A stretch of 64,000 bases of DNA from Plasmodiophora brassicae (GCA_036867785.1 CP145409.1:1984001-2048000), one strand, 5' to 3'. Counted from the stretch's first letter, positions 26,795 through 50,060 are shown. The notes: generated from the sequence alone by a model not told the origin. Numbers and translations are program-made.

Positions 26795-29700
26795 ATGCTG
26801 GACATACCGTCCGACACGGTCGTGCAGTCGCCGTCCGTGTTCACGTCGCGCCTGTACCGGCGCCTGCCGCGGTACTCGCCGGCGCGACTCGACGTCGGGC
26901 CGTTCGTGATTGGGTATGCGATCGCCCTGGCGGCCATCTATGCCGTGGTGACGTCGCCATCGGTCGACGTGTCGACCGAGGTGACCACCGTGTCGCCCAG
27001 CCCTGAGGCCGTCGTCGAAGCCGCAGCCGATGACAGCAGCGCCGTTGTAAATATCACAGAAATGGCCGATTCCAATGCAACGATGGCGACGAGCGCCACG
27101 GCGCCGAGTAAATCCCCATTGGCGTTCATGGATGGCTGGAGCACGCATACGATTCTCGTGTTCGTGTCCTGCATATTGCTGCTCGCCTGTCATGGAATCA
27201 CCATCCTGTCGACCAGCTGGTACGTGCCCGTGTATCGCCGCCGCCGTTTGCCCGACTCTGACCCTGGTCACGCAGGTCGGTGTCTCTCAAATGCTTCATC
27301 AGGTACCGTCGCGTGCGATCCGTCCGTCACGCGACTGCCGTTGCCGTTAAACCCTCACCAACGTCATCGTGGTCTCTATGCAAGATTGAGGTCTGTTCTG
27401 GATGCTCTGGTTACCTATATCGATGGCGCGCTCACTGGTGTGCAGAAAATCGCAGGGCAGCGCGGGTTCACCCACCAACGACGGAAATTCATATGGTCGC
27501 AGGATCATTCCGCGTTTGTCGAGCTTGACTTCCCGACGGCGCACGCTCGTCAGCACTATGTTCGGGCACAGGGTCTTGGTCACGACGATGACGAAATGTT
27601 TATCAAGCGATCGAAGTACGGCCTGAACCTATTCGACGTCCCGCTACCTTTGTTTTCGACACTCTTTGCCGAGCACGCCACCGCCCCGTTCTTCGTCTTC
27701 CAAATGTTCTGCGTCGGCCTCTGGCTTCTGGACGAGTACTGGTATTACTCACTGTTGACCCTGTGTATGTTGGTTCTCTTCGAGATGTCTGTCGTGAAGC
27801 GCCGCCTAGGTCAGACATCATCGTCGTGCGTGAATTCTCCCAGGGCTCCTCATCCCATCGTACAGTGTCAATGGAGCAAGTCAGGAGTATGCGGGCGGCG
27901 CCGTATGAAGTCACCGTGTACCGCGCCGGTCGCTGGAGAACCGTGTCCACCTCTGAACTGCTTCCCGGGGACCTGTTGTCTTTGAAACGATATGGAGAAG
28001 GCCTGGTCCGAAACGTTCCTTGTGACGTTGTCCTCATACGCGGACACTGCGTTGTCGACGAGTCGCTTCTTACTGGCGAATCCGTTCCACAGGTTTGCTT
28101 ATTGCGTGCCTGCTGACAGCGCCGCTGTGCAACTAACGCTGTCGCTGTGTAGCTCAAAGAGCCGCTGGCAGCGTCCGGTGAACTGTCCAAACCATTGGAC
28201 ATTGACGGTGCTGATAAGGCTCACGCGATCTTCGGTGGCACGCGCGTCATTGTTCATTCGATGACAGAGACGGGGCCCGCGTCCGTCAAACGTCCCGCCG
28301 ACGGTGGTTGCATCGTATACGTTCTCAGGACTGGCTTTCACACGTCGCAAGGACGGCTTCTGTCGACGATTCTGTGCTCAACCGAGCGCGTCACTGTGAA
28401 CAACGCCGAATCCTTCCTGTTCATTGCGTGCCTGCTGCTGTTCGCGATCGTTGCTGCCGGATACGTTCTGATTCACTCCTGGTATGACCCAACGCGGTCG
28501 CGTGCGAAGCTCATCCTGAACTGCATCATGATTGTCACGTCGGTCGTGCCGCCCGAGCTCCCTATGGAACTGTCGCTTGCCGTGAACACTTCACTCTCGG
28601 CGTTGATGCAGAAGCGTATCTTCTGCACGGAGCCATTTCGGATTCCGTTCGCCGGGGCCGTTGACACCGTCTGCTTCGATAAGACCGGCACGCTCACCGA
28701 CGACACCTTTGAATTCCTCGGTGTTGCGTGCTCGGCACCTCCCGACTACGAACCGGACGATAAGTTTGACGTACGTATCAACAGGTGGTTGGGTTACCGT
28801 TGCGTGCTGAATCCTCTGGCAGTTATGTCCTGCCGACCAAGCGCCGATATGGTCAAGAAGAGTCATCGGGACGTGTCACAGCCTGGTCCATCTCGACGGT
28901 GGCCTAGTCGGCGACCCTCTCGAAAAGGCGGCTCTCTCTGCTGTTGGCTGGCAGACGTCGGGATCGAATGCTGGCGTTAATTCGGTTCGCGGTCAAGGAG
29001 AGCAACTTCGGATTGTTCGCCGGTTTGCATTTGAATCAGGTCAGCATCGACTTTATGGCGGTTCTTCCATTGTTTAACCATCCGTATCAGCGCTGCGCCG
29101 GATGACGTGTATCATCAATGTCAATGACTCGGAGTCGGCCGTTGTTTCTAAAGGGGCACCCGAAGCTATTGCTGAACTGTGCTGTTCTGTCCCTCCCGAT
29201 TTCGACTGCGTGCATCGTCACTTCTCGAGGCTCGGCTGTCGTGTCCTCGCGATGGCGTACAGGCATCTCCGCGTTGGAAACCACGCTGTTGTCAACGAAT
29301 CGCAAGCGATGCAACTCGAAAGGCGCGAAGTCGAACGGGATCTGATCTTCGTCGGCTTTATGGTCCTCCAGAGCCCGATCAAGCCCTTGTCGCAATCGAC
29401 GGTGAAGGCTTTCCGTAGCAGCTCACACCATGTTGTCATGATCACGGTACGTGACGTGGAACCGGTAGCCTATGTCGTCAGGCTAACGTGATCCACGGTC
29501 GCAGGGTGATCACGCGCTGACCGCCTGCGAGGTATCCAGGCGTTTGACGATCATACCGTCGGAGGCTCCTGCCGTTATCCTTACCCCTCGATCTGGTATG
29601 TCGGTTGGTTCGTCGCTGGCTGCTGCTGGTTAATGGTTCATTCGGCAGATGACAGCGGCCTGGACTGGATCGCCGTAACGGATCATGCAAGTGCAACACC

Positions 29701-31038: not shown

Positions 31039-31881
31039 TCATGTCGATTGGTTCTGTAGTTGAGCCGCGGCGACCGCCAGGTCTATGATGGCGGGGGCGA
31101 CGCTGCCGACCGTCGGCCCATCGTTGCCGGCGGCGCCCAGCGCCACGGGCGCCCCTTGCCCACTATGTACTCTGCCGATGTGCGCCTTCAGCGACGACTT
31201 CTGCCGGAACGTCTTATCGCACTGGTCGCACTCGAACTTGGCGCCCTGGTGGTGCACGGCCGTATGGGAGAACAGGTTGCCCTTCTGGGCGAACGTTTTC
31301 CTGCAGATCGTGCACTCGTACGGGCGGTCGCCCGAGTGGAACCGCTGGTGGTTCGACAGCGTGAACGACGTGGCGAACGCCTTCCCGCAAATATTGCACC
31401 CGTACGGGCGCTCGCCCGTATGTACGCGTTTGTGTTTGGCCAGCGCCGACGTCTGCGAGAACGCTTTCCTGCAGACGGTGCACTCGAACGGTTTGTCGCC
31501 GGTGTGGATCCGCGAATGGGTCGTCAGGTTGCAGCGCTGCGAGAACGACTTGAGGCAGACCGGGCACTGGAACGGGCGTTCGCCGCTGTGTACCCGGGCG
31601 TGCCGGTCCAGCTGCGACTTGGACGGGAACACCTTGTCGCAATGTGCGCAGGGCAGCTCGTTACCGGACGGCGGCCGAGACGCAGACGCGGCGGTAGGCG
31701 ACGACACCGGCGACGTTGGTGCCGGTGACGAGTCGCCGTCGGCCGTGGCGCCGGCGTCGTTGGCGGCCGGGGCCGGTTCAGGCGTCAAGTACTCGGTTGC
31801 CCTGGCGAGCTCATCGACGAGCCCGTTCCGATCGTCGGACGGCATTGCGGGAATGGTGGCGCGCTCGCCGCCCGACTGCAC
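31039..31881 (-). CDS. C2H2 zinc-finger protein, 6 fingers (paralogue A, intronless)
   Basis: Continuous 280-aa ORF with HSGERPF/HTGDKPF linkers. Confidence 0.92.
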   Translation of the reverse strand: MQSGGERATIPAMPSDDRNGLVDELARATEYLTPEPAPAANDAGATADGDSSPAPTSPVSSPTAASASRPPSGNELPCAHCDKVFPSKSQLDRHARVHSGERPFQCPVCLKSFSQRCNLTTHSRIHTGDKPFECTVCRKAFSQTSALAKHKRVHTGERPYGCNICGKAFATSFTLSNHQRFHSGDRPYECTICRKTFAQKGNLFSHTAVHHQGAKFECDQCDKTFRQKSSLKAHIGRVHSGQGAPVALGAAGNDGPTVGSVAPAIIDLAVAAAQLQNQST

Positions 31882-32426: not shown

Positions 32427-33132
32427 TCACGTCGCCGTGTGTACTTTGGCGACATGCGCTTTCAGCGACGATTTCTGCCGGAACTTCCGGTCGCACCGGT
32501 CGCAGGCGTACTTGGCGTCCTCGTGCGTGGCCGCATGCGAGAACAGGTTGCCTTTCTGCAGGAACGTCTTGTTGCAGATCTCGCACTGGTACGGCCGGTC
32601 GCCCGAGTGACATCGCTGATGGTTCGTCAGCGTGAACGACGTCGCGAACGCCTTGTTGCACACGGTGCAGCGGTACGGACGTTCGCCCGTATGTACCCGC
32701 CTATGCTTGACCAGCGACGACGACTGCGAAAACGACCGTCTGCAGATGCCACACTCAAACGGCCTATACGCAGAGCACCTGTCAGACGCGTCCGGTTTCC
32801 TCGGAGTGCCTCAGCGCACCTGTCTCCAGAATGGATGCGATGATGCGCGACGAGGTTGCAGGACTGGCGTTGGCGAATGAGAATAGGCCTGCCGATGACA
32901 GATTCGGCGTTCTGGGTTACTCTACCTGCGAGAACGACTTCAGGCAGACGTTGCATGTGAACGGGCGTTCGCCGCTGTGCACGCGAGCGTGTCGTTCGAG
33001 AAGCGACTGGCACGAGAACGCCTTCGGACAGTCAGGGCAGACTAGCACGCCGCCACCGGATATCTCCTCGGCTCCCGGCAACGCTGGCATGGAGAACAGA
33101 CTGCCTTTGTCGTCGGTCGCCAACGTGGCCAT
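32427..33132 (-). CDS. C2H2 zinc-finger protein, 6 fingers (paralogue B, 2 introns)
   Basis: ORF pieces 32917-33243 and 32427-32663 are closely similar to paralogue A. GT-AG introns follow SFSQ and HSGDR. Confidence 0.88.
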
Positions 33133-33403
33133 GACGCAACTTCCTCGCCACGCACATTTCCGGGGGTGCAGCTTCGACTGGGCGACGCGCGTGGGTCCAG
33201 CTGTCCAGCTGCCCGCCTCCTCGTGAAACAGGTCCAGGCCCACGTTGCAACCGTGTTGCCAAACACAAGGGGGCTGCCGGTCGTTGTTGGTCCCCCAAAT
33301 CCAGGCTGGGCTGTTGCTGTTGCTCGAGACTGTGCGGGTATGTATTAATTGCTGACTGGTCTACCTGCACGCGGACGCCGCTGGCTCCAGGTTTAGCGCG
33401 CGA

Positions 33404-34843
33404 ATGCATCGTCGTGTTGCTGTGAAGGCGGCGTTCTGCACGGGTGCTGCTGCTGCGCAACGACGTGCACGTGCATCGCCTCCCGTGATGGCATCCGTGC
33501 CGATCGGGTTGCACCATCGGCAGTGGCACTGGTTCGAGTCGTTCCTGAAGCGCCCGTCGATGGGGATGGCCATACGCGCACTTCGTCACGATGACGACGC
33601 GCACCGCGGCTGGGCTGTGTTCCAGCACGTCCTTCGACTGGGATGCCCCGTCGATGTCCGTCTCTTCATGACCATGATGATGTTCTGCAGACGGCACCTG
33701 CCGTCGAAAGCGCCCCAGGTCCTCCGGACGGCCGTGTCCGTCGGGGTCCCCGTCTCCAACGACGACGGTCTCTTCTGCACGTTCCTGAGCGCATGTCAAC
33801 GTGCGGGCCGCCATCTTCTCGACGAGTCCATCGACGTGTACCGGGAACACGGCCCGAGGTCACACGACGTCCTGTTCACGTTGGCGCATTCCTGCCGGGT
33901 CGCACAACGTCCCGGGGATGCGTTGTTCCTCGTCCAGGACGCCATCGAGAACGCAGTGGAATTCAGTGAACGTCTCCTGTCGATCTTCGCGGCGTGCTGC
34001 GCCGAATCCACCAAGTCGGCCAATGTCGCCGAACAGCTCCTGGATGTGATTCGGTCCAGGCGCACGGGCGCACCCACCAGGAACCATCGTGTGTTCGCCA
34101 ATCTCGTTAAGGTGCTGCTGGCCGAGTCCAGGTACAGTCGGGCGATCTCGACGCTCGACCTGATGGACGGCATCGGCCTACCGCCGACAGAAGGCCTGTT
34201 CAACCACCTGCTCTGCGTCCTGGCCAACGCTGACCACATCCTGCAAGCGTTCACCGTGTTCGACGTGATGGTTGCCAGAGACGTTCTCGTCGACAGCACA
34301 GCGCTTAGCCAGCTGATCGTCAAGTCTACCCGTCTAGCGTCCCTTCGTGTATTGGACAAATACGTTTCGAAGCACCCGGACGTCCTCGACGGGTATGTTG
34401 CCTGCTCCTTCATCTCCGCCTACGGTCGATTCGGCAACATCGCCCTTGCCGAACGCGTCTTCCACCGCATCGACTCCCCGGACGCACCGACGTACAACGC
34501 CATGGTCGTCGCGTACTGCCGCGCCGGCATGCTGCCGCATGCAATCGACACGTTCGAACGGTACCACGTTGCCGACCGACACCCGTCGGCGTGCAACAGT
34601 GCCCTGTCGGCGTTCGCCAGAGCGGATTCCATTCCGCGCGCTCTCTTCGTCCTCCATGCCATGCAGGAACGCAACGTCCCGGTGACGGCGGCGGCCCTGT
34701 GCTCGCTCGTCGCCGCATGTGCTCGATGCTCGGATCGTAATACGTTGAACATGCTCCTGGACGACGCACGCCTGCGTGACGACCCAGCTCTAGTGTCGGC
34801 GTTCGACTCGGCCAGTGCCTGCCTGTCTGTCGCAGGTGTCTAA
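33404..34843 (+). CDS. Pentatricopeptide-repeat (PPR) protein
   Basis: Intronless 479-aa ORF with SFISAYGRFGNIALAERVF, TYNAMVVAYCRAG..AI..F and FNHLLCVLA..AF.VFD.M. The basic N-terminus resembles a mitochondrial presequence. Confidence 0.85.
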   Translation: MHRRVAVKAAFCTGAAAAQRRARASPPVMASVPIGLHHRQWHWFESFLKRPSMGMAIRALRHDDDAHRGWAVFQHVLRLGCPVDVRLFMTMMMFCRRHLPSKAPQVLRTAVSVGVPVSNDDGLFCTFLSACQRAGRHLLDESIDVYREHGPRSHDVLFTLAHSCRVAQRPGDALFLVQDAIENAVEFSERLLSIFAACCAESTKSANVAEQLLDVIRSRRTGAPTRNHRVFANLVKVLLAESRYSRAISTLDLMDGIGLPPTEGLFNHLLCVLANADHILQAFTVFDVMVARDVLVDSTALSQLIVKSTRLASLRVLDKYVSKHPDVLDGYVACSFISAYGRFGNIALAERVFHRIDSPDAPTYNAMVVAYCRAGMLPHAIDTFERYHVADRHPSACNSALSAFARADSIPRALFVLHAMQERNVPVTAAALCSLVAACARCSDRNTLNMLLDDARLRDDPALVSAFDSASACLSVAGV

Positions 34844-35440: not shown

Positions 35441-36212
35441 ATGATGGCGGCGCAGCGAGGTCCCTTGCCGCCGTTCCCGAGCATGTTCGTCCACGTCGTC
35501 GAGCAGGAGTTCCCGTGCAGCCAGTGCGACAAGGTATTCCCGACGCGCGCGCAGGTTGAACGCCACATGCGAGTCCATAACCCGGATCGGCCGTTCACCT
35601 GCGACGTCTGCATGAAGACGTTCACGCAGAAGTGCAACCTCAGCAAGCACGCGCGTATCCATACCGGCGACAAGTACGGGATGTGGACCGCTCATGTGAT
35701 GCTCCCGGTCTGACGCACGCGTAGGCCGTTCGAGTGCACGATCTGCCGGAAGGCGTTCGGCAGGCGGTCGGTCCTGACGAAGCACATGCGGGTGCACACC
35801 GGCGAACGATCATACCATTGCACTGTCTGCGGCAAGGACTTCGCCACGTCGTTCTCGTTGTCCAACCATCAGCGCTTCCACAGCGGCGACCGGCCGTACG
35901 AGTGTTCCATCTGCAGAAAGACGTTTGCCATGAAGGTTTGATTCCGATCATGTGTTCGCCGGAATGCATTGTGCTCATCAGTCTAACGTGTGCTATTTGG
36001 AATCCACAGGGCAATTTGACGTCGCATCTGACGGTCCAGTAAGCCGAAATTCAGTATGCACTGATGGAAATTACGTTGCTCACAGCCGTGTACCGTTTAG
36101 TACGGAAGGCGCAAAGTTCGACTGTGAGCATTGCGAGAAGAGGTTCCGACACAAATCGTCGCTGAAGACGCACATCGCTAAATTTCACCCACTGCCGGCG
36201 TCGTCGTCGTGA
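35441..36212 (+). CDS. C2H2 zinc-finger protein, 6 fingers (paralogue C, 3 introns)
   Basis: Fingers read across the introns at ~35674, ~35936 and ~36039. Ends KSSLKTHIAKFHP. Confidence 0.88.
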
Positions 36213-36432
36213 TTTGTCAGACTGCATAGGATCTACGGTTCGACTGTTATATCCATAAACCGAATCAATGCTCGTCGACGTCGGCTACCGACCGCAATAC
36301 TGGTAGGGGTGCCGCATAGGGACGCTGAACCGATGTGACCCTGTCCTGGCATACGTCGCCGTTGTCAACAGGGGGTGCCTGGCGGACGTTGGGCCCATAG
36401 CCCCGCGGCGACGACGTTGTACGCGACCCACA

Positions 36433-36907
36433 CCTATCAGCACCCGGTTCAGTGACCAGAAACGGTATGACACAATGTGGCCAATACTCAAAGGTCCTCC
36501 AACGACGTCAGTTGCCCGATCTCGGCAGGAATCGACTGCAACTGACTGGATGACAAGCACCTAACAGCACCGGTCCAGTTACCAGAAACGGTATCACACA
36601 ACGTGGCCAATACGAACAGCTCCTCCAACGACGTCAATTGCCCGATCTCGGCAGGAATCGGCTGCAACTAAGTGGAACTCAAGTCCTTATCAGCACGGGT
36701 TGCTGATAGGGGCTTGATGTTGCAGTCGATTTCTGCCGAGATCGGGCAATTGACGTCGTTGGAGGACCTGCACGTATTGGCCACATTGTGTGACACCGTT
36801 TCTGGTAACTAAACCGGTGCTGATAGGTGCTTGTCATCCAGTCAGTTGCAGTCGATTCCTGCCGAGATCGGGCAATTGACGTCGTTGCAATCCCTTTGAC
36901 TATTGGC
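36433..36907. repeat. Fold-back inverted repeat made of four degenerate LRR exon+intron cassettes (~126-bp unit)
   Basis: Two units on the minus strand and two on the plus strand meet head-to-head at tatcagca-cgggt-tgctgata (36688-36708). Each exon-like part encodes L.S.QLQSIPAEIGQLTSL..L. Confidence 0.9.
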
Positions 36908-37019
36908 GCTTAGTGCGAATACGGTTTCTAGCGCAACACGTTCATCGCAGCATATCGAGTCGACGACGACATCAGAAGAGAAAACGAGCAGCAGCAGGCG
37001 AAGAAACCGAGTAGGTAGA

Positions 37020-37690
37020 GGGAGAGACTTGCAGATGTAGAACGGGAACCCGTATCGGCAAAGAGGTCATGTAGGCGTCCGCGGAGACGACCCTGAGCAT
37101 GTAAGTCGTAACCATCGGGTTGGTGGTTGCACCAGTCGACCATTAACGAAGCCGGCGGACCTTGGCACCCCAGCTCAGAGTCGTAGAGCGCCTTGATCTG
37201 CTGGAAGGATGCGTGCTCAACGCGTTCGTGTCGTTACTCTATGCTGACGGCTGGTGCTGGCCTCGTAGCGGAAGGCGTGTCCATCGACTGATCGTGCTGG
37301 CTTCGCGTTGACGCCCAGAAGTGCCCAGAATCTATGTAGACGGTGGAAGACCAGCTTCGCCTGCTTGGCGAATGTGTAGTACTCGATGTTGTCTCGATCG
37401 TGGAGTCCACGATGCGCTGCCCAAACACCAGATTCGACTTGAACCTCGGCACGTAGCGGGTGTCGTTCAGGTCGCACTGCTTGACGTCAATGACATTGCG
37501 CGCGGTACCAATCCGGCCGTCGATGATTGTGCGCGCGGCACCAATCCTCCTAGCGCGTCATCTCTCGGCCGCCGCCTACATAGGTAGGCAGCACGTTCTG
37601 GAAGACGATATCGTCTCGTCGCTTCTGACAATCCGCCGACGTGGTTCATTCAGCGCGTGAAAGACACATGGCGCTCACCGTGCCATGCTT
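37020..37690 (-). pseudogene. Degraded coding fragment of unknown family
   Basis: Codon-biased stretches (NVIDVKQCDLNDTRYVPRFKSNLVFGQRIV / NIEYYTFAKQAKLVFHRL / QQIKALYDSELG) are broken by frameshifts, stops and a small local duplication. Confidence 0.4.
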
Positions 37691-38178: not shown

Positions 38179-38953
38179 ATGGCGCAGGCGGGCGTCGCAA
38201 CGGGCCCGATCGTTGTCGTCGAGGGTGACGAGTTCGCATGCAGCGAGTGCGGCAAGGAGTTCGCCACGAAGGCCCAGGTGAAGCGGCACGCGCGCACGCA
38301 CTCGCAGGTCCGCCCGTTCTCGTGCGACGTCTGCCTCAAGACGTTTATGACGAAATGCAACCTGACGAAGCACACGCGTATCCATACCGGCGAACGGTTC
38401 GTGTACTCGGGACCGATGACGCGCAAATGGACATTGACAGCGGCTGTCAGGCCCTACGAGTGCACGATCTGTCGGAAAGCGTTCGGGCGGCGGGCCATCC
38501 TGACGAAGCATATGCGGGTGCATACCGGCGAGCGCCTGTACCATTGCACGGTCTGCTCCAGGGATTTCGCCACCGCGTTCTCACTGTCGAATCACGAACG
38601 ACTCCACACGGGCGATAGACCATACGAGTGCCCGATCTGCCGCAAGACGTTCGCCATCAAGGTCGGTCGGTCCGTCTGGTTGCGCGCCCGGTTTCGCCGA
38701 CTAATGCTGCTGCTGCTGCTCCAGGGGAATTTAACATCGCACCTAACTGTCCAGTAAGTCCATCCCGATGCGCGCGTGCCAGTGTATACCCGTGCGCTGA
38801 TGGCGGCTCGTTCGCAGCACGAAGGACGCCAAGTACAAATGCGACGTCTGCGAGAAGCTGTTTCGGCACAGGTCGTCGTTGAACATGCACGTCGTCAAAT
38901 TCCACAGCCCGCGAACCGGGACGGCTGCGGCCCCGTCGCAGTCGACCCAGTAA
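38179..38953 (+). CDS. C2H2 zinc-finger protein, 6 fingers (paralogue D, 3 introns)
   Basis: Same three intron positions as paralogue C. Ends RHRSSLNMHVVKFHS. Confidence 0.88.
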
Positions 38954-45541: not shown

Positions 45542-47059
45542 ATGACGATCGTCGATGACGAGAAGTTGGGCATCGTCCGCAAGCTCGCGCATACCGACAA
45601 GGCGGTTCGCGACGAGGCCGTCCAGGGCGTCGTCAGGTGGCTCGAAAGACGTAGCAACGTCACCTCTGTCGATCTGTTGAAACTATGGAAAGCGCTCTAC
45701 TATTGCATGTGGATGTCCGACAAGCCACGCGTGCAGTCCGATCTGGCTGACAACATGGCTGGTCTGCACATGTTCCTGCCGCGCTCATCGGCACGCGTCT
45801 GACAGGTATTCTCTGCCAGGAATCATTCGCACCATTCCTTCCGACCGCGTTGTGCCGTATGTTACCGCGTTTCTGGAGACGATGCTGCGGGAATGGCATG
45901 GTACTGATAAGCTGCGTTTGGACAAGTTCTACACGCTCGTTCGCCGGTCGATGCGCTCTATCTATTACGTGGCATTTCGTCCCGACTTTGCCGACCGATC
46001 CTCTGATCTCATCGATACGGTGTCGCGCCTAATCTTGGCCAACACGGACGCGAAATCTCGTGGGCTCACACTTCACGTCGCTGACGTTCTCGTCGACGAG
46101 GTACACCCGCAACTGTTCCATTGCGACGTTTCCGTGATGCTCACTGCGCTGCACAGCTTAATGGGGCGCTGGATGAGACTGGCCCTGGTGAGGACGCTTA
46201 CCACTACGAGGTCGTCTGGCGTGTTCTTCAGTCGTCCCTGTCTGTGCTGACCACGACCGCTGTCGATCGTGTTCAGCAGAAGCGTCTGCATGATCGCGTC
46301 TTCATGCGCATCCTGGACGACGCCGAAACGATCGCGTCGTCCAATGACGATGACGATGTGACTGTATCGAACCTGACGACCTTGATATTGATGAACGCCG
46401 CTGACCTGTCCAATCGCTTCTTCGATGCTGCCGCCGATCCCGCCTCTGCCGAGCGCAACCGAAAGGCGCTGTACTCCTTGCGAACACGATTTCAAACCCT
46501 GCAGCAACTTGTCGAACGCGCTCTGGAAGAATCCGATGACGAGAACGGGCACGGAGGAGGTGATGGCGAACCGTGTCCAAGCGCCCTTGGTCTGCCCGCC
46601 GGTGTCCACAGCGTTCAAAACGTGGTGGAGGACGAGCATGCGCAGGATGGGAATGCCCAGACGGGGCCTCCTGACGTGGATCCTCCTGTCCAGTCTGCTG
46701 AACTCAAAACGCCTTCTCGGCGGCGCCGTCGACGTTCGTCTCTGGCATCGACTCCAAACGAAGATGGCCGGGACGCCAAGCGTCAGACAGTCGAGATGGA
46801 CGGCGACAGGGCGTCCGAATGCGTTGACGCTTCCGCCAGTGGTGACGCGCCGGTCGCCCAGCCGGTGATCGCCGCCGATCAGGCCCAGGCCGAGAAGGAG
46901 GAGGAGCGGCCAGCCACGAAATCGGTGTCCTTTTCGGCCACGAAAAGCATCCGCAAGTTCAACAAGGCGACGCCGATCAAGATCAAGACGCCGGCCCGCG
47001 AGCTGATCGCCAAGAAGTCGCCCGGATCCGCCCTGAAGACCGGCTCGCGCTTGAAGTAA
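45542..47059 (+). CDS. RRP1: RRP1/Nop52 nucleolar rRNA-processing protein
   Basis: KLAHTDKAVRDEAV, LLKLWKALYYCMWMSDKP.VQ, REWHGTDKLRLDKFY, and a basic tail with KSVSF. Confidence 0.9.
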
Positions 47060-47582
47060 ACGATCGGGGGCCCGCGTATTATCCTCTGGGCCGTGTGTAC
47101 TGTGCAGATATTCGGGCGGTGGCCCGCGCGGGATATTATTATTCTCGCCGGGCGAAGATCTCTCTCTGCGCCGCGTGCGATTGGCAAAAGGGTGTCGCTC
47201 CTGCGCTGCTGCTGCTGCTGCTGCGACTGGGGGGCGCTGCCGTCGTTCGCCCACCGCATTTTTGGGCAGTTCCGTGCGGGGGCGCTACATCGACGTCGTG
47301 TGCGCGGCCTCGGCGCATGCAACGCTGACTGGGGCGCGCGTCGATAAAATTGTTTTCGTGAGTGGCACGCCGCCGCGCGCGCGCCCGCGCCCCCCCCCCC
47401 CCAATATAATAATCCGCCGCGTCTCACTGGGCCGTCGGTGCGGTGAGTGGACGGGCCGCCCCGGGGGGAGGGGGGCTGCATCATTCCCCCCCAAATTGGA
47501 AGATCGTCGTCGCTCACGGGCATGCGGGTAGGTGGCCGACGACGACGGCGCTGCTGCTGACGTGTGTGTGCACCCCCATCGC

Positions 47583-50060
47583 ATGGCGACCGACGCGGCC
47601 GCCGCCGCCGAGCACCGCGCCTCCGTCCTGTCCATCCCCGAGGTGCAGCTCATTGGCACCATCCTCGACGACACCGATGTGCCGCCGCCGCCGCCGAACC
47701 CATCCGTCATCGCCATGCCGACCCCGAAACCGTTCGCGTCGTCGCGATTCGCAAGGTCGACATCGGCGCCGCCGCAGCTGTCCATCGTCGAACAGCCGAC
47801 ATATGTGAACGGCGAAGCGATATCGCCCGAGGACCCGCGCCTGTCCCCAGCGTACTACGCGTACTACTACTCGCAACGGCCTATCGATCCGCGCCTCCCG
47901 CCGCCCTTGGTGGACTATTCCACATGGGGCGCTGGGCAGCAGCCACCATCGCAGCCGCCGCACCATGATCCGTTCAGTCACATGCGGCTACCTCAAGCGG
48001 ACAAGGCGGGCAGCGGCGCCCGCGTGCCGCCGCGGGTGCCGTCGCTCGGCAAGTCGGTGCGCGACAACGTCTGGGCCATCGAGAAGTCGTTCGGGTCGGC
48101 AGTCCTACCGAATGACCTGCCGAGGTCGGCGTCGCCGCTGCTGCACACGACCTGGCATGCTGCTGGGGCGGCCAAGCCCGACTATCCTGTAAGCCTGTGC
48201 TCGTTCCTCGGACGCGTGGGCTGATGGGCACCTGCTGTAGAAGGCGAACGCGGCACAGCCCGACGCCGACCTGCATCTCAAGTTTGCCAACTTTCATGTG
48301 GGCAGAGTCGCGTCCAGAGCGCGTGCTCAACTCCAGGGGCGCTGATTGCGTTGTTCAGGTATCGCAGCCGCATGGCCGTCCGTACCAGGCGCAGCCGCAG
48401 GCGTACGATGGCGTCCCGTTCGCCCCAATGCCGGCGGCGGATTCATCCGGCGGGTATTACGGAGGGTCCACGCGTGGCGACTCGAGACATGCAATGGCGA
48501 ACGGTGGAGGTCCACCCGTCTATCCAAATCCGTACCATCAACGTGCGCAGCAGCAGCACCAGCCGTACTGGGACAACGCGAACAACCCGCTGTACTACGC
48601 TGAGTACCCAGCGGTAATGCGCCACGTGCCCGTTCGCTTTGTGCAAGGTTGCCCCCCGCTGACGGTGCCCGTCCTGTCGCAGTTCCCCAGTACCGTTGGC
48701 CTGCATCAACGGAGCGCGTCCGCATTGCCAACGCCATCCAACCATCGGCCCATTCCCTATGGCAAGCAGCGCCGCCAGCAGTCGGCGACGGACAGGGCCT
48801 CTGTCCTCAATGGCAATGGGGCTGCCATGCAGAAGGCTGCAATTGTACACGAACTTAAAGTTAACAAGCACCATCATCGGGTATGCGCGTTCGATCCCGT
48901 TTTCGCAAGCGCTCGTCGCTGACCATCGACGCCACTTCCCAGGTGCGCCTATCCGATGTGATTGCCTCTGGGATCGTTTCCGTACTGGCGACGGAGCAGA
49001 ACGGGTCTCGGTTCATCCAGCTGCATCTCGAGAATGCCACCGAGGAGCAGCTCGACGAAATGTTCGCTCAGCTGCAGGCGGACACCATCCGATTATCCGT
49101 CGACGTCTTCGCCAATTACGTCGTACAGAAGTTCTTCGAATTCGGACGCCCGCGACACCGTCAAGGGTTTGCCGAGCGGATACTCGGCTCGGTGCTGCCA
49201 CTGTCGCTACAAATGTACGGCTGCCGCGTCATTCAGAAGGCGCTCGAGGTACAGCGCCGTTTGCGTCGCACGGTCGACCCGCTGGCTGTTGAATCCGATC
49301 TACAGGTGGTGGATCCTGGCATGCAAGCTGCGTTTATTGCCGAGCTGAAAGGCAACGTCGAACGTTGCGTCAAGGACCAGAACGGCAATCACGTCATCCA
49401 GAAGTGCATTGAAATTCTGCCATCGCAGTCAACGGCCTTCATCATCGATTCGTTCATTGGGAACGTGTACGCGTTCTCGACGCATGCCTACGGCTGTCGC
49501 GTTATGCAACGCCTCCTTGAGCACTGCACCGACGAGGTCAGGCGGGAACAGCTGCTGCGGGAAGTCATGGATCGCGTCGTGGACTTGATCATGGACCAGT
49601 TCGGCAACTACGTCGTGCAGAACATCTTGGAGCGAGGCCCCCCGCAATACCGCTCGGTGATCATCGCGCATGTCAAGGGTCGCGTTTGCGAGTTCAGCAG
49701 GCACAAGTTCGCGTCCAACGTCGTGGAGAAGTGCTTCGCTCTCGGGGGCGAACACGACAAGGAGGAACTCGTCCAGGAAGTGTGCAGCTGTGCGGGCACG
49801 TCGGATAATTGCCCGCTTGTGCTCATGGTCAAGGACCCGTTTGGTAATTACGTCATCCAGAAGGTTGCGTCGTTCCGTTTCGAATGCGCCCTGTTGTCCC
49901 CGTTCTGACCCGTGTTCCGCAGATACTCGCGGTGGTATCGCCCGAGCAGCGGGATCGACTCGTTGGCGCGATCTGCAGCAAGATCCCCAACCTGCGGAAG
50001 ATCGCCTTCGGCAAGCATATAATTGCGACTGTTGCGCGCCTGACCGGTCAGGCAATCTGA
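47583..50060 (+). CDS. Pumilio/PUF RNA-binding protein with 8 canonical repeats
   Basis: Recognition motifs SRFIQ, NYVVQ, CRVIQ, NHVIQ, CRVMQ, NYVVQ, SNVVE, NYVIQ. N-terminal DPRLSPAYYAYYYS...DPRLPPPL; ends FGKHII. Confidence 0.92.

Follow-up and report, generated by a model that had tools for sequence, protein, structure and literature searches.

A fold-back of damaged leucine-rich repeat cassettes in Plasmodiophora brassicae: a possible hairpin-RNA source born of inverted duplication

What is a palindrome built of gene fragments doing between two zinc-finger genes of the clubroot agent, Plasmodiophora brassicae? The question is raised by a 64,000-nt stretch of its genome (GCA_036867785.1 CP145409.1:1984001-2048000; this whole stretch is the window, and positions are counted from its first letter). 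Four cassettes of about 126 nt lie at 36434-36950, two per strand, and converge on a 5-nt loop at 36696-36700. They sit between the C2H2 genes C and D and start about 220 nt past the stop codon of gene C. Each consists of an exon-like segment encoding one leucine-rich repeat (LRR) and an intron-like spacer. An initial annotation, made from the sequence alone, offered two readings of this layout: a product or reservoir of LRR exon shuffling, or a hairpin locus producing small interfering RNAs (siRNAs) against an LRR family. Most probably the locus is of a known kind, a gene-derived hairpin locus. The best explanation overall, a tentative one, is that of a hairpin-RNA source born by inverted duplication.

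The locus is a genuine chromosomal fold-back. A repeat search of the window returned a 126-nt direct repeat on the left side (36444-36569 and 36570-36695, 85% identity) and an inverted pair of 189 nt, 92% complementary and 50 nt apart (36480-36668 and 36719-36907). In a scan of the whole window for inverted repeats (minimum 40 nt, within 3 kb), nothing but the hairpin locus was found. A 30-nt exon-like core has four copies in the window at no more than one mismatch, two per strand, and none of 100 shuffled sequences gave any match. The in silico folding that had been proposed as a check points the same way. The + strand RNA of 36420-36920 folds at -380.2 kcal/mol, against -155.3 +/- 7.4 for its shuffles (z = -30.6), and the predicted fold places the 5-nt loop at 36696-36700. 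The - strand RNA folds at -393.4 kcal/mol (z = -42.5), and on neither strand was any of the 100 shuffles as good. Repeat search, core count and folding thus confirm the four units, two facing each way around the loop.

How good is the symmetry, and where does it end? Aligned arm against arm (36480-36695 and 36701-36907), the core is complementary at 188 of 207 aligned positions; the other 19 are mismatches, and there is one indel, of 9 nt. The predicted stem of either strand is about 210 bp long and approximately 91% paired. Complementarity then falls sharply, from 91% to about 55-60%, at 36480/36907. Rfam has no match anywhere in the 64-kb window.

The next question is what the cassettes are made of. 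As judged from its translation, the 69-nt segment encodes one 23-aa LRR of the Pfam LRR_1/LRR_8 class, and the translations agree with those of the initial annotation. The LRR core is LxxLxLxxNxL followed by xxIPxxIGxLxxL, with a period of 20-30 aa; the cassette fits it with all hydrophobic positions kept and the Asn replaced by Ser or Thr. In a window-by-window comparison, a single cassette is identical at 17/23 residues to LRRs in 11 of the best 120 database proteins. For a read-through of one arm (P0004, in which X replaces the TAA stop of the spacer), matches to LRR proteins reach an E-value of 5.5e-44. Of the 320 candidates, 198 have E <= 1, the values being inflated by the repeats. Pfam was also applied to the three stop-free exon translations. 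For two there was no match, and the third matched LRR_14 with E = 0.087 (12 bits against a cut-off of 40), a single repeat being too short for the models.

Is the Ser at the Asn position a scar? It had been listed, together with TT in place of the GT donor, as a lesion shared by the outer units. The TT donor is indeed present in both. However, Ser or Thr at this position also occurs in intact LRR proteins of the same protein set ('YLSSSQL', 'NLSSTQL'). Therefore, the Ser need not be a lesion and may be original.

The spacer resembles an intron in its size, its register, its AG ends and, in the inner units, its GT or GC start. Excising the 57-nt spacer sets the 23-aa LRRs in exact register (..LEDL joined to CLSSS..), and the 69-nt segment is symmetric, with the same phase at both ends. 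The size of the spacers (57-58 nt) is within that of the 51-, 74- and 47-nt introns read in the adjoining zinc-finger gene C, and the mean P. brassicae intron is 60 bp (PMC4471660). One LRR per exon may be the way in which plasmodiophorid LRR genes are built. Only one spacer has GT..AG ends (36561-36617), one has GC..AG and two begin with TT. In a direct reading of the sequence the spacer of every unit ends in AG. Nevertheless, the claim that AG precedes each exon-like segment holds in the consensus register for three units and fails for the left inner one, which has AA at the acceptor position and AG 1 nt downstream.

How are the four units related to each other? They were aligned in the LRR sense, and the sequence was read directly for their layout. 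The exons of the outer pair are identical at 64/69 positions and those of the inner pair at 55/60, with 80-90% identity in the remaining four pairs. The inner units were thus correctly described as alike, one carrying a TAG and the other a 9-nt deletion. These values support an inverted duplication of a two-unit block, as the initial annotation had it, although the left outer and right inner exons (54/60) come near the inner-pair value. The proposed likeness of the outer units stands for their exons, but not to the same degree for their spacers. Three spacers are mutually 85-87% alike, whereas the right outer tail is 48-57% like them (21-25/44). Its alignment score was reached by 57 of 5000 shuffles; for the flanks beyond, which are unrelated, the count was 1847 of 5000. 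The similarity of this tail to the other spacers is weak, yet probably real. Because the right outer spacer is related to the others so weakly, the strong symmetry stops at 36480/36907, and the distal 46 nt of the left outer spacer (36434-36479) fall outside the high-identity core.

All of this has a plausible history. The palindrome very probably originated by inverted duplication of a genomic fragment holding two LRR exon/intron cassettes. The intron-like spacers were copied too, so the duplicated fragment was genomic DNA and not complementary DNA. The axis gives a clue to the mechanism. Intact junction spacers read ..AACCGGTGCTGATAG and contain the hexamer palindrome ACCGGT (positions in Table 1). 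The axis itself, GCACGGGTTGC, differs by one substitution and one inserted base from GCACCGGTGC, the sequence predicted by inversion exactly at ACCGGT. Since the axis falls where the ACCGGT of a spacer would, a switch at that hexamer is suggested. A strand or template switch there during replication or repair would be the simplest origin. The boundary at 36480/36907 could then be the other end of the duplication event, or perhaps it shows how far conversion between the arms later reached. A full, family-like outer spacer is kept in the left arm, probably the older of the two.

Could the locus still encode part of an LRR protein? The lesions are a TAG in the left inner unit, a 9-nt deletion in the right inner unit and the lack of a GT or GC donor in either outer unit. 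No intact tandem-repeat open reading frame (ORF) that could give a functional LRR domain was found at the locus. Possible continuations were considered on both sides. On the left, a terminal exon for that arm at 36268-36432 (-) is open for 55 aa, but its G+C content at third codon positions (GC3) over the three frames is 0.67/0.72/0.56, compared with 0.78-0.90 in frame 1 of real local genes. This ORF has no Pfam match, and an exhaustive HMMER search for homologues gave three proteins, all through summed weak matches to their own internal repeats. Its E-value of 7e-17 (as P0245) consists of 13 weak matches summed over the repeat of one 2925-aa protein, a case in which repeat-rich targets inflate whole-sequence E-values. 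On the right, Pfam assigned no family with E < 0.02 to the ORFs considered as an upstream gene part on the - strand (36928-37233, 37234-37557 and 37217-37486).

Nor is there an LRR gene nearby. A six-frame LRR motif scan of the window gave three matches, all within the hairpin. When 120 LRR/ROCO proteins were compared with the window by tblastn, 1434 of 2211 high-scoring segment pairs (HSPs) fell into two 500-nt bins, 36000-36999. Outside 36400-36950, the best stand-alone E-value in this search was 0.028; an HSP at 36328-36429 (21.6 bits) owes its E of 5e-09 solely to linkage with the hairpin HSPs. Pfam found no LRR, Roc or COR domain in 14 + 8 ORFs of the window. Motif scan, tblastn and Pfam therefore agree with the initial annotation that the window holds no other LRR gene. 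With all four pseudo-exons or splice sites damaged, no coding tail and no LRR gene nearby, nothing is encoded at the locus. Two weak tblastn clusters, at 28100-28380 (-) and 47465-47554 (+), comprise 49 and 45 HSPs with a best E of 0.06. The ORFs near them that were scanned (27603-28220 (-), 47055-47531 (+) and 47532-48224 (+)) show no LRR by Pfam, and the clusters are probably leucine-rich noise.

If the cassettes did not come from a neighbour, which family do they resemble? In protein comparisons, the LRR type of the cassette, QLQSIPAEIGQLTSL, is that of PBRA_009205 and PBRA_008223. The motif QLQSIPAEIGQLTSLE occurs, again at the protein level, in two LRR proteins of P. brassicae whose N-terminus is hydrophobic. 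The two proteins are P0039 (XXQ34123.1, also CEP00911.1 (PBRA_008223) and SPQ97021.1) and P0353 (CEP02987.1; PBRA_009205). Both have a hydrophobic, signal-peptide-like N-terminus followed by LRRs of exactly the cassette type, and P0353 bears NNQLQSIPAEIGQLTSLE twice, 16 contiguous residues that are identical to the cassette. The derivation of the arms from a protein-coding family of the same genome is seen in P0039 and P0353 at the protein level only. Members of the 'SIPAEIGQLTSL' LRR family may be secreted proteins, possibly effectors. The P. brassicae secretome is enriched in LRR proteins (PMC4471660), and no literature was found on PBRA_009205 or PBRA_008223.

Some further observations concern this family. 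Among the best 120 of 2026 matches to P0039, P0039 and P0353 are the only named P. brassicae proteins, and most of the others are LRR and U-box-LRR environmental (ENA/JGI) proteins, with a single named one, from Micromonas commoda, besides. The LRR domain of P0039/P0353 is up to 67% identical to environmental LRR/U-box-LRR proteins and 60% identical to a protein of Micromonas commoda, the other named matches being far more distant. This likeness may reflect convergence of a regular repeat or a shared origin. The P0039 gene has three annotations, of 284, 302 and 414 aa, which differ at both ends. SPQ97021.1 (414 aa), the record of a nuclear-type LRR protein, is labelled 'mitochondrion'.

Why would such a palindrome be of any consequence to the cell? 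The RNA interference set of P. brassicae is reported to comprise Argonautes and one double-RNase III protein but no RNA-dependent RNA polymerase (RdRP; PMC4471660). A more recent study describes two Argonautes (AGOs) and a Drosha-like enzyme, PbDRL, that cuts long double-stranded RNA, and it reports that Dicer and RdRP are absent (Zhang et al., 2026; PMC13547706). In the same study 90.3% of the small RNAs are 21 nt long, phased, 5'-C biased and mainly intergenic. Long palindromic precursors give rise to phased 21-nt small RNAs ('A palindromic genomic region ... generates miRNAs'), and the listed microRNA (miRNA) precursors measure 58-993 nt. How the siRNA precursors are generated 'remains unclear' (PMC13547706). 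Some precursors span or bridge adjacent PHAS pairs: miR088 lies over PHAS21-340/341, miR096 between 360/361 and miR042c at 346/347 (PMC13547706). Among the 118 PHAS loci examined, 20 adjacencies join loci similar in length at a spacing of no more than 200 nt (9-190 nt; PMC13547706 Tables S6/S8). The appearance of such pairs suggests the two arms of long hairpins.

Long hairpins are thus an established source of small RNAs in a parasite that has no RdRP, which makes the locus a plausible source of hairpin siRNAs. Transcription from either strand would give a double-stranded stem of about 210 bp, to be cut by the Drosha-like enzyme. The locus would then be a young source of hairpin RNA, either endogenous siRNA or a proto-miRNA, and its natural targets would be the parental LRR family. 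The steps of this scheme are not equally probable. In our assessment, the production of small RNAs from the locus is quite possible. Real regulation of LRR genes by the locus is unlikely. If anything, it is less likely still that the locus is an active young hairpin gene, in which 'SIPAEIGQLTSL' LRR-family cassettes would yield phased 21-nt siRNAs cut by PbDRL and PbAGO would use them to tune the family.

Several observations weigh against a functional hairpin. None of the 234 published P. brassicae miRNAs (Table S8, PMC13547706) lies in it, the overlaps being chance 8-9-mers; this comparison covers the 234 listed miRNA sequences, as 78,890 siRNAs are unlisted and the PHAS and hc-siRNA loci are given only as coordinates on another assembly. 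Six 8-nt core motifs of exon and spacer have no occurrence in the supplement of PMC13547706. The arm mismatches do not speak for selection on an RNA stem either. Five are G:U on the + strand, six on the - strand and eight on neither, so strand-specific G:U preservation is absent and the pattern is that expected of neutral decay. Compared with family members already known, 5-6 of the 23 residues in the cassettes are different. Together with the 9% drift between the arms, this means that long perfect matches to live targets may be few. Finally, the three annotations of one family gene show contiguous LRRs and are uninformative on introns.

What if the duplication left nothing but a silent relic? 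In this explanation the same inverted LRR-pseudogene duplication either gives no transcript or has no consequence, and it decays within a long intergenic region. It is nearly as likely as the hairpin-RNA source. All cassettes are damaged, the arm mismatches are symmetric and neutral-looking (5/6/8), no listed miRNA maps to the hairpin, and the 55-aa continuation has neither a real homologue nor coding-type GC3. However, long, close-spaced palindromes are usually unstable, and this one has survived until its arms had drifted 9% apart. Moreover, given what is described for this organism (PMC13547706), a transcript crossing the 210-bp stem, which lies 220 nt beyond a stop codon, would be diced.

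The exon-shuffling explanation fares much worse. As a reservoir or product of shuffling, the locus would donate cassettes by recombination or gene conversion, in the style of brown-alga ROCO genes or lamprey variable lymphocyte receptors (VLR). A symmetric 69-nt exon flanked by intron-like sequence is the geometry that this needs, and the brown-alga precedent cited in the initial annotation is real. The ROCO loci of Ectocarpus have one LRR per symmetric exon and hold reverse-oriented, inactivated LRR exons, and the inactivated or inverted copies keep splice-like ends, as here (Zambounis et al., 2012; PMC3341825). However, an LRR exon of Ectocarpus measures 72 nt (24 aa) and the spare ones lie inside ROCO introns, whereas those described here are 69 nt (23 aa) and orphaned in a zinc-finger cluster, where they form a tight palindrome. 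A stop, a deletion or the lack of a usable donor marks three of the four cassettes, no further cassette copy exists in the window, and a plasmodiophorid host is unrelated to brown algae. With no LRR or ROCO gene within 64 kb to shuffle into, the proposal finds no support at this locus, and we regard it as very improbable.

A fold-back transposable element or a miniature inverted-repeat transposable element (MITE) with captured LRR fragments in its arms is similarly hard to credit. The layout, with its two long inverted arms and hardly any gap, would suit such an element, and Mutator, CACTA and hAT are annotated in P. brassicae (Table S5, PMC13547706). However, the arms are unequal in extent and their ends fade into weak similarity without defined termini. 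In addition, there is no target-site duplication at 36434/36950 or 36480/36907 on reading the sequence, and no second copy in 64 kb, which disfavours a transposon. Fold-back chimeras are a known long-read artefact, but artefactual palindromes are exact, whereas these arms differ at 19/207 aligned positions and by a 9-nt indel, the outer spacers are strongly different and both flanks run on into unique sequence with ordinary genes, so an assembly or chimeric-read artefact is the least probable explanation of all.

Table 1. Features of the fold-back locus and the neighbouring zinc-finger genes (positions in the window; units are named by arm and by distance from the axis)
Feature	Position	Strand	Remarks
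High-identity fold-back core	36480-36907	both arms	~210-nt arms, 188 complementary, 19 mismatches, one 9-nt indel
Left outer spacer	36434-36491	-	58 nt; starts TT, ends TGCTGATAG; 85-87% identical to both inner spacers
Left outer LRR pseudo-exon	36492-36560	-	69 nt; CLSSSQLQSIPAEIGQLTSLEDL; 17/23 to database LRRs; 16 contiguous residues in PBRA_009205
Left inner spacer	36561-36617	-	57 nt; GT..AG; ACCGGT at 36569-36574; separates left inner and left outer pseudo-exons
Left inner LRR pseudo-exon	36618-36686	-	69 nt; DLSST*LQPIPAEIGQLTSLEEL; in-frame TAG at 36668-36670; AA at acceptor site
Symmetry axis	36687-36709	.	Facing spacer ends (TGCTGATAA/G) around loop CGGGT (36696-36700); centre GCACGGGTTGC
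Right inner LRR pseudo-exon	36710-36769	+	60 nt; 9-nt deletion; GLMLQSISAEIGQLTSLEDL; from alignment and translation
Right inner spacer	36770-36826	+	57 nt; GC..AG; ACCGGT at 36813-36818; in-frame TAA; separates right inner and right outer pseudo-exons
Right outer LRR pseudo-exon	36827-36895	+	69 nt; CLSSSQLQSIPAEIGQLTSLQSL; 64/69 identical to left outer
Right outer diverged spacer-like tail	36896-36950	+	TT..CAG; only first 12 nt in high-identity core
C2H2 gene A	31165-31650	-	
C2H2 gene B	32439-33039	-	
C2H2 gene C	35516-36188	+	
C2H2 gene D	38239-38905	+	

The surroundings of the hairpin are those of a eukaryotic, gene-dense region, with Pfam domains that include PPR, C2H2, protein kinase, FANCI, SacI-homology and ClC. 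The four C2H2 paralogues (Table 1) are alike at about 72%, and this likeness is confined to their coding parts. They are arranged head-to-head, A and B on the - strand and C and D on the + strand, around a PPR gene at 33356-34843, and have short introns at conserved places. Elsewhere, the ClC protein encoded in the window shares 65% identity with its Spongospora subterranea counterpart, and its only named P. brassicae match is a paralogue at 45%. The host is accordingly placed among the plasmodiophorids, most likely as P. brassicae, and not among the brown algae. The segment 54001-58000 has a G+C content of 0.70-0.74, compared with approximately 0.60 in the rest of the window, and long overlapping ORFs on both strands, as its composition predicts.

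Is there a precedent for a hairpin of this kind? The closest concept comes from plants, where foldback small-RNA loci are born when sequence of a target gene is duplicated in inverted orientation. Foldbacks of the MIR163/MIR161 type likewise derive from local inverted duplication and have arms that resemble the donor family, and large young foldbacks are expected to yield heterogeneous siRNA-like populations first (Fahlgren et al., 2007; PMC1790633). The present case differs in that the host is a rhizarian parasite with a Drosha-like enzyme in place of Dicer-like enzymes (DCLs), in that intron-like spacers were copied, and in that small RNAs and their targeting are only proposed. Within P. brassicae itself, the published precursors are intergenic hairpins of comparable size (58-993 nt, against about 430-520 nt here), but the locus is absent from the 234 listed miRNAs (PMC13547706). 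The available text of that study contains no mention of 'leucine' or 'LRR' and no discussion of a gene-derived origin of hairpins. A literature search for 'Plasmodiophora' together with palindrome returned only a mitochondrial repeat region and this same RNA interference paper.

Two further systems may be compared. In Trypanosoma brucei, siRNAs come from long inverted repeats that measure 422-10,011 bp and have 99-100% identity (Tschudi et al., 2012; PMC3447711). In contrast, the arms described here are about 210 bp long, approximately 91% alike and built of LRR cassettes. To our knowledge, T. brucei lacks an RdRP. The hairpin RNA (hpRNA) loci of Drosophila are long genomic hairpins derived from target genes, and they give endogenous siRNAs through Dicer-2 without an RdRP. 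Their Dicer-2 pathway is that of animals, and the small-RNA output of the locus described here is a proposal.

What would the locus mean for P. brassicae? It displays, with a history that can still be read, how a precursor can arise: pieces of an LRR gene have become a hairpin of about 210 bp centred on a 6-nt palindrome. If no small RNAs map to it, it is an ordinary decaying rearrangement. If they do, the birth of a hairpin would be tied to a specific family of candidate secreted-protein genes. Self-targeting regulation would become testable in Rhizaria, and a genome-wide search for gene-derived palindromes would be worthwhile. If the locus also tuned that family, no target-derived hairpin regulator would have been described in Rhizaria before it, and it would offer a concrete answer to where a parasite without an RdRP, the agent of clubroot, obtains its siRNA precursors.

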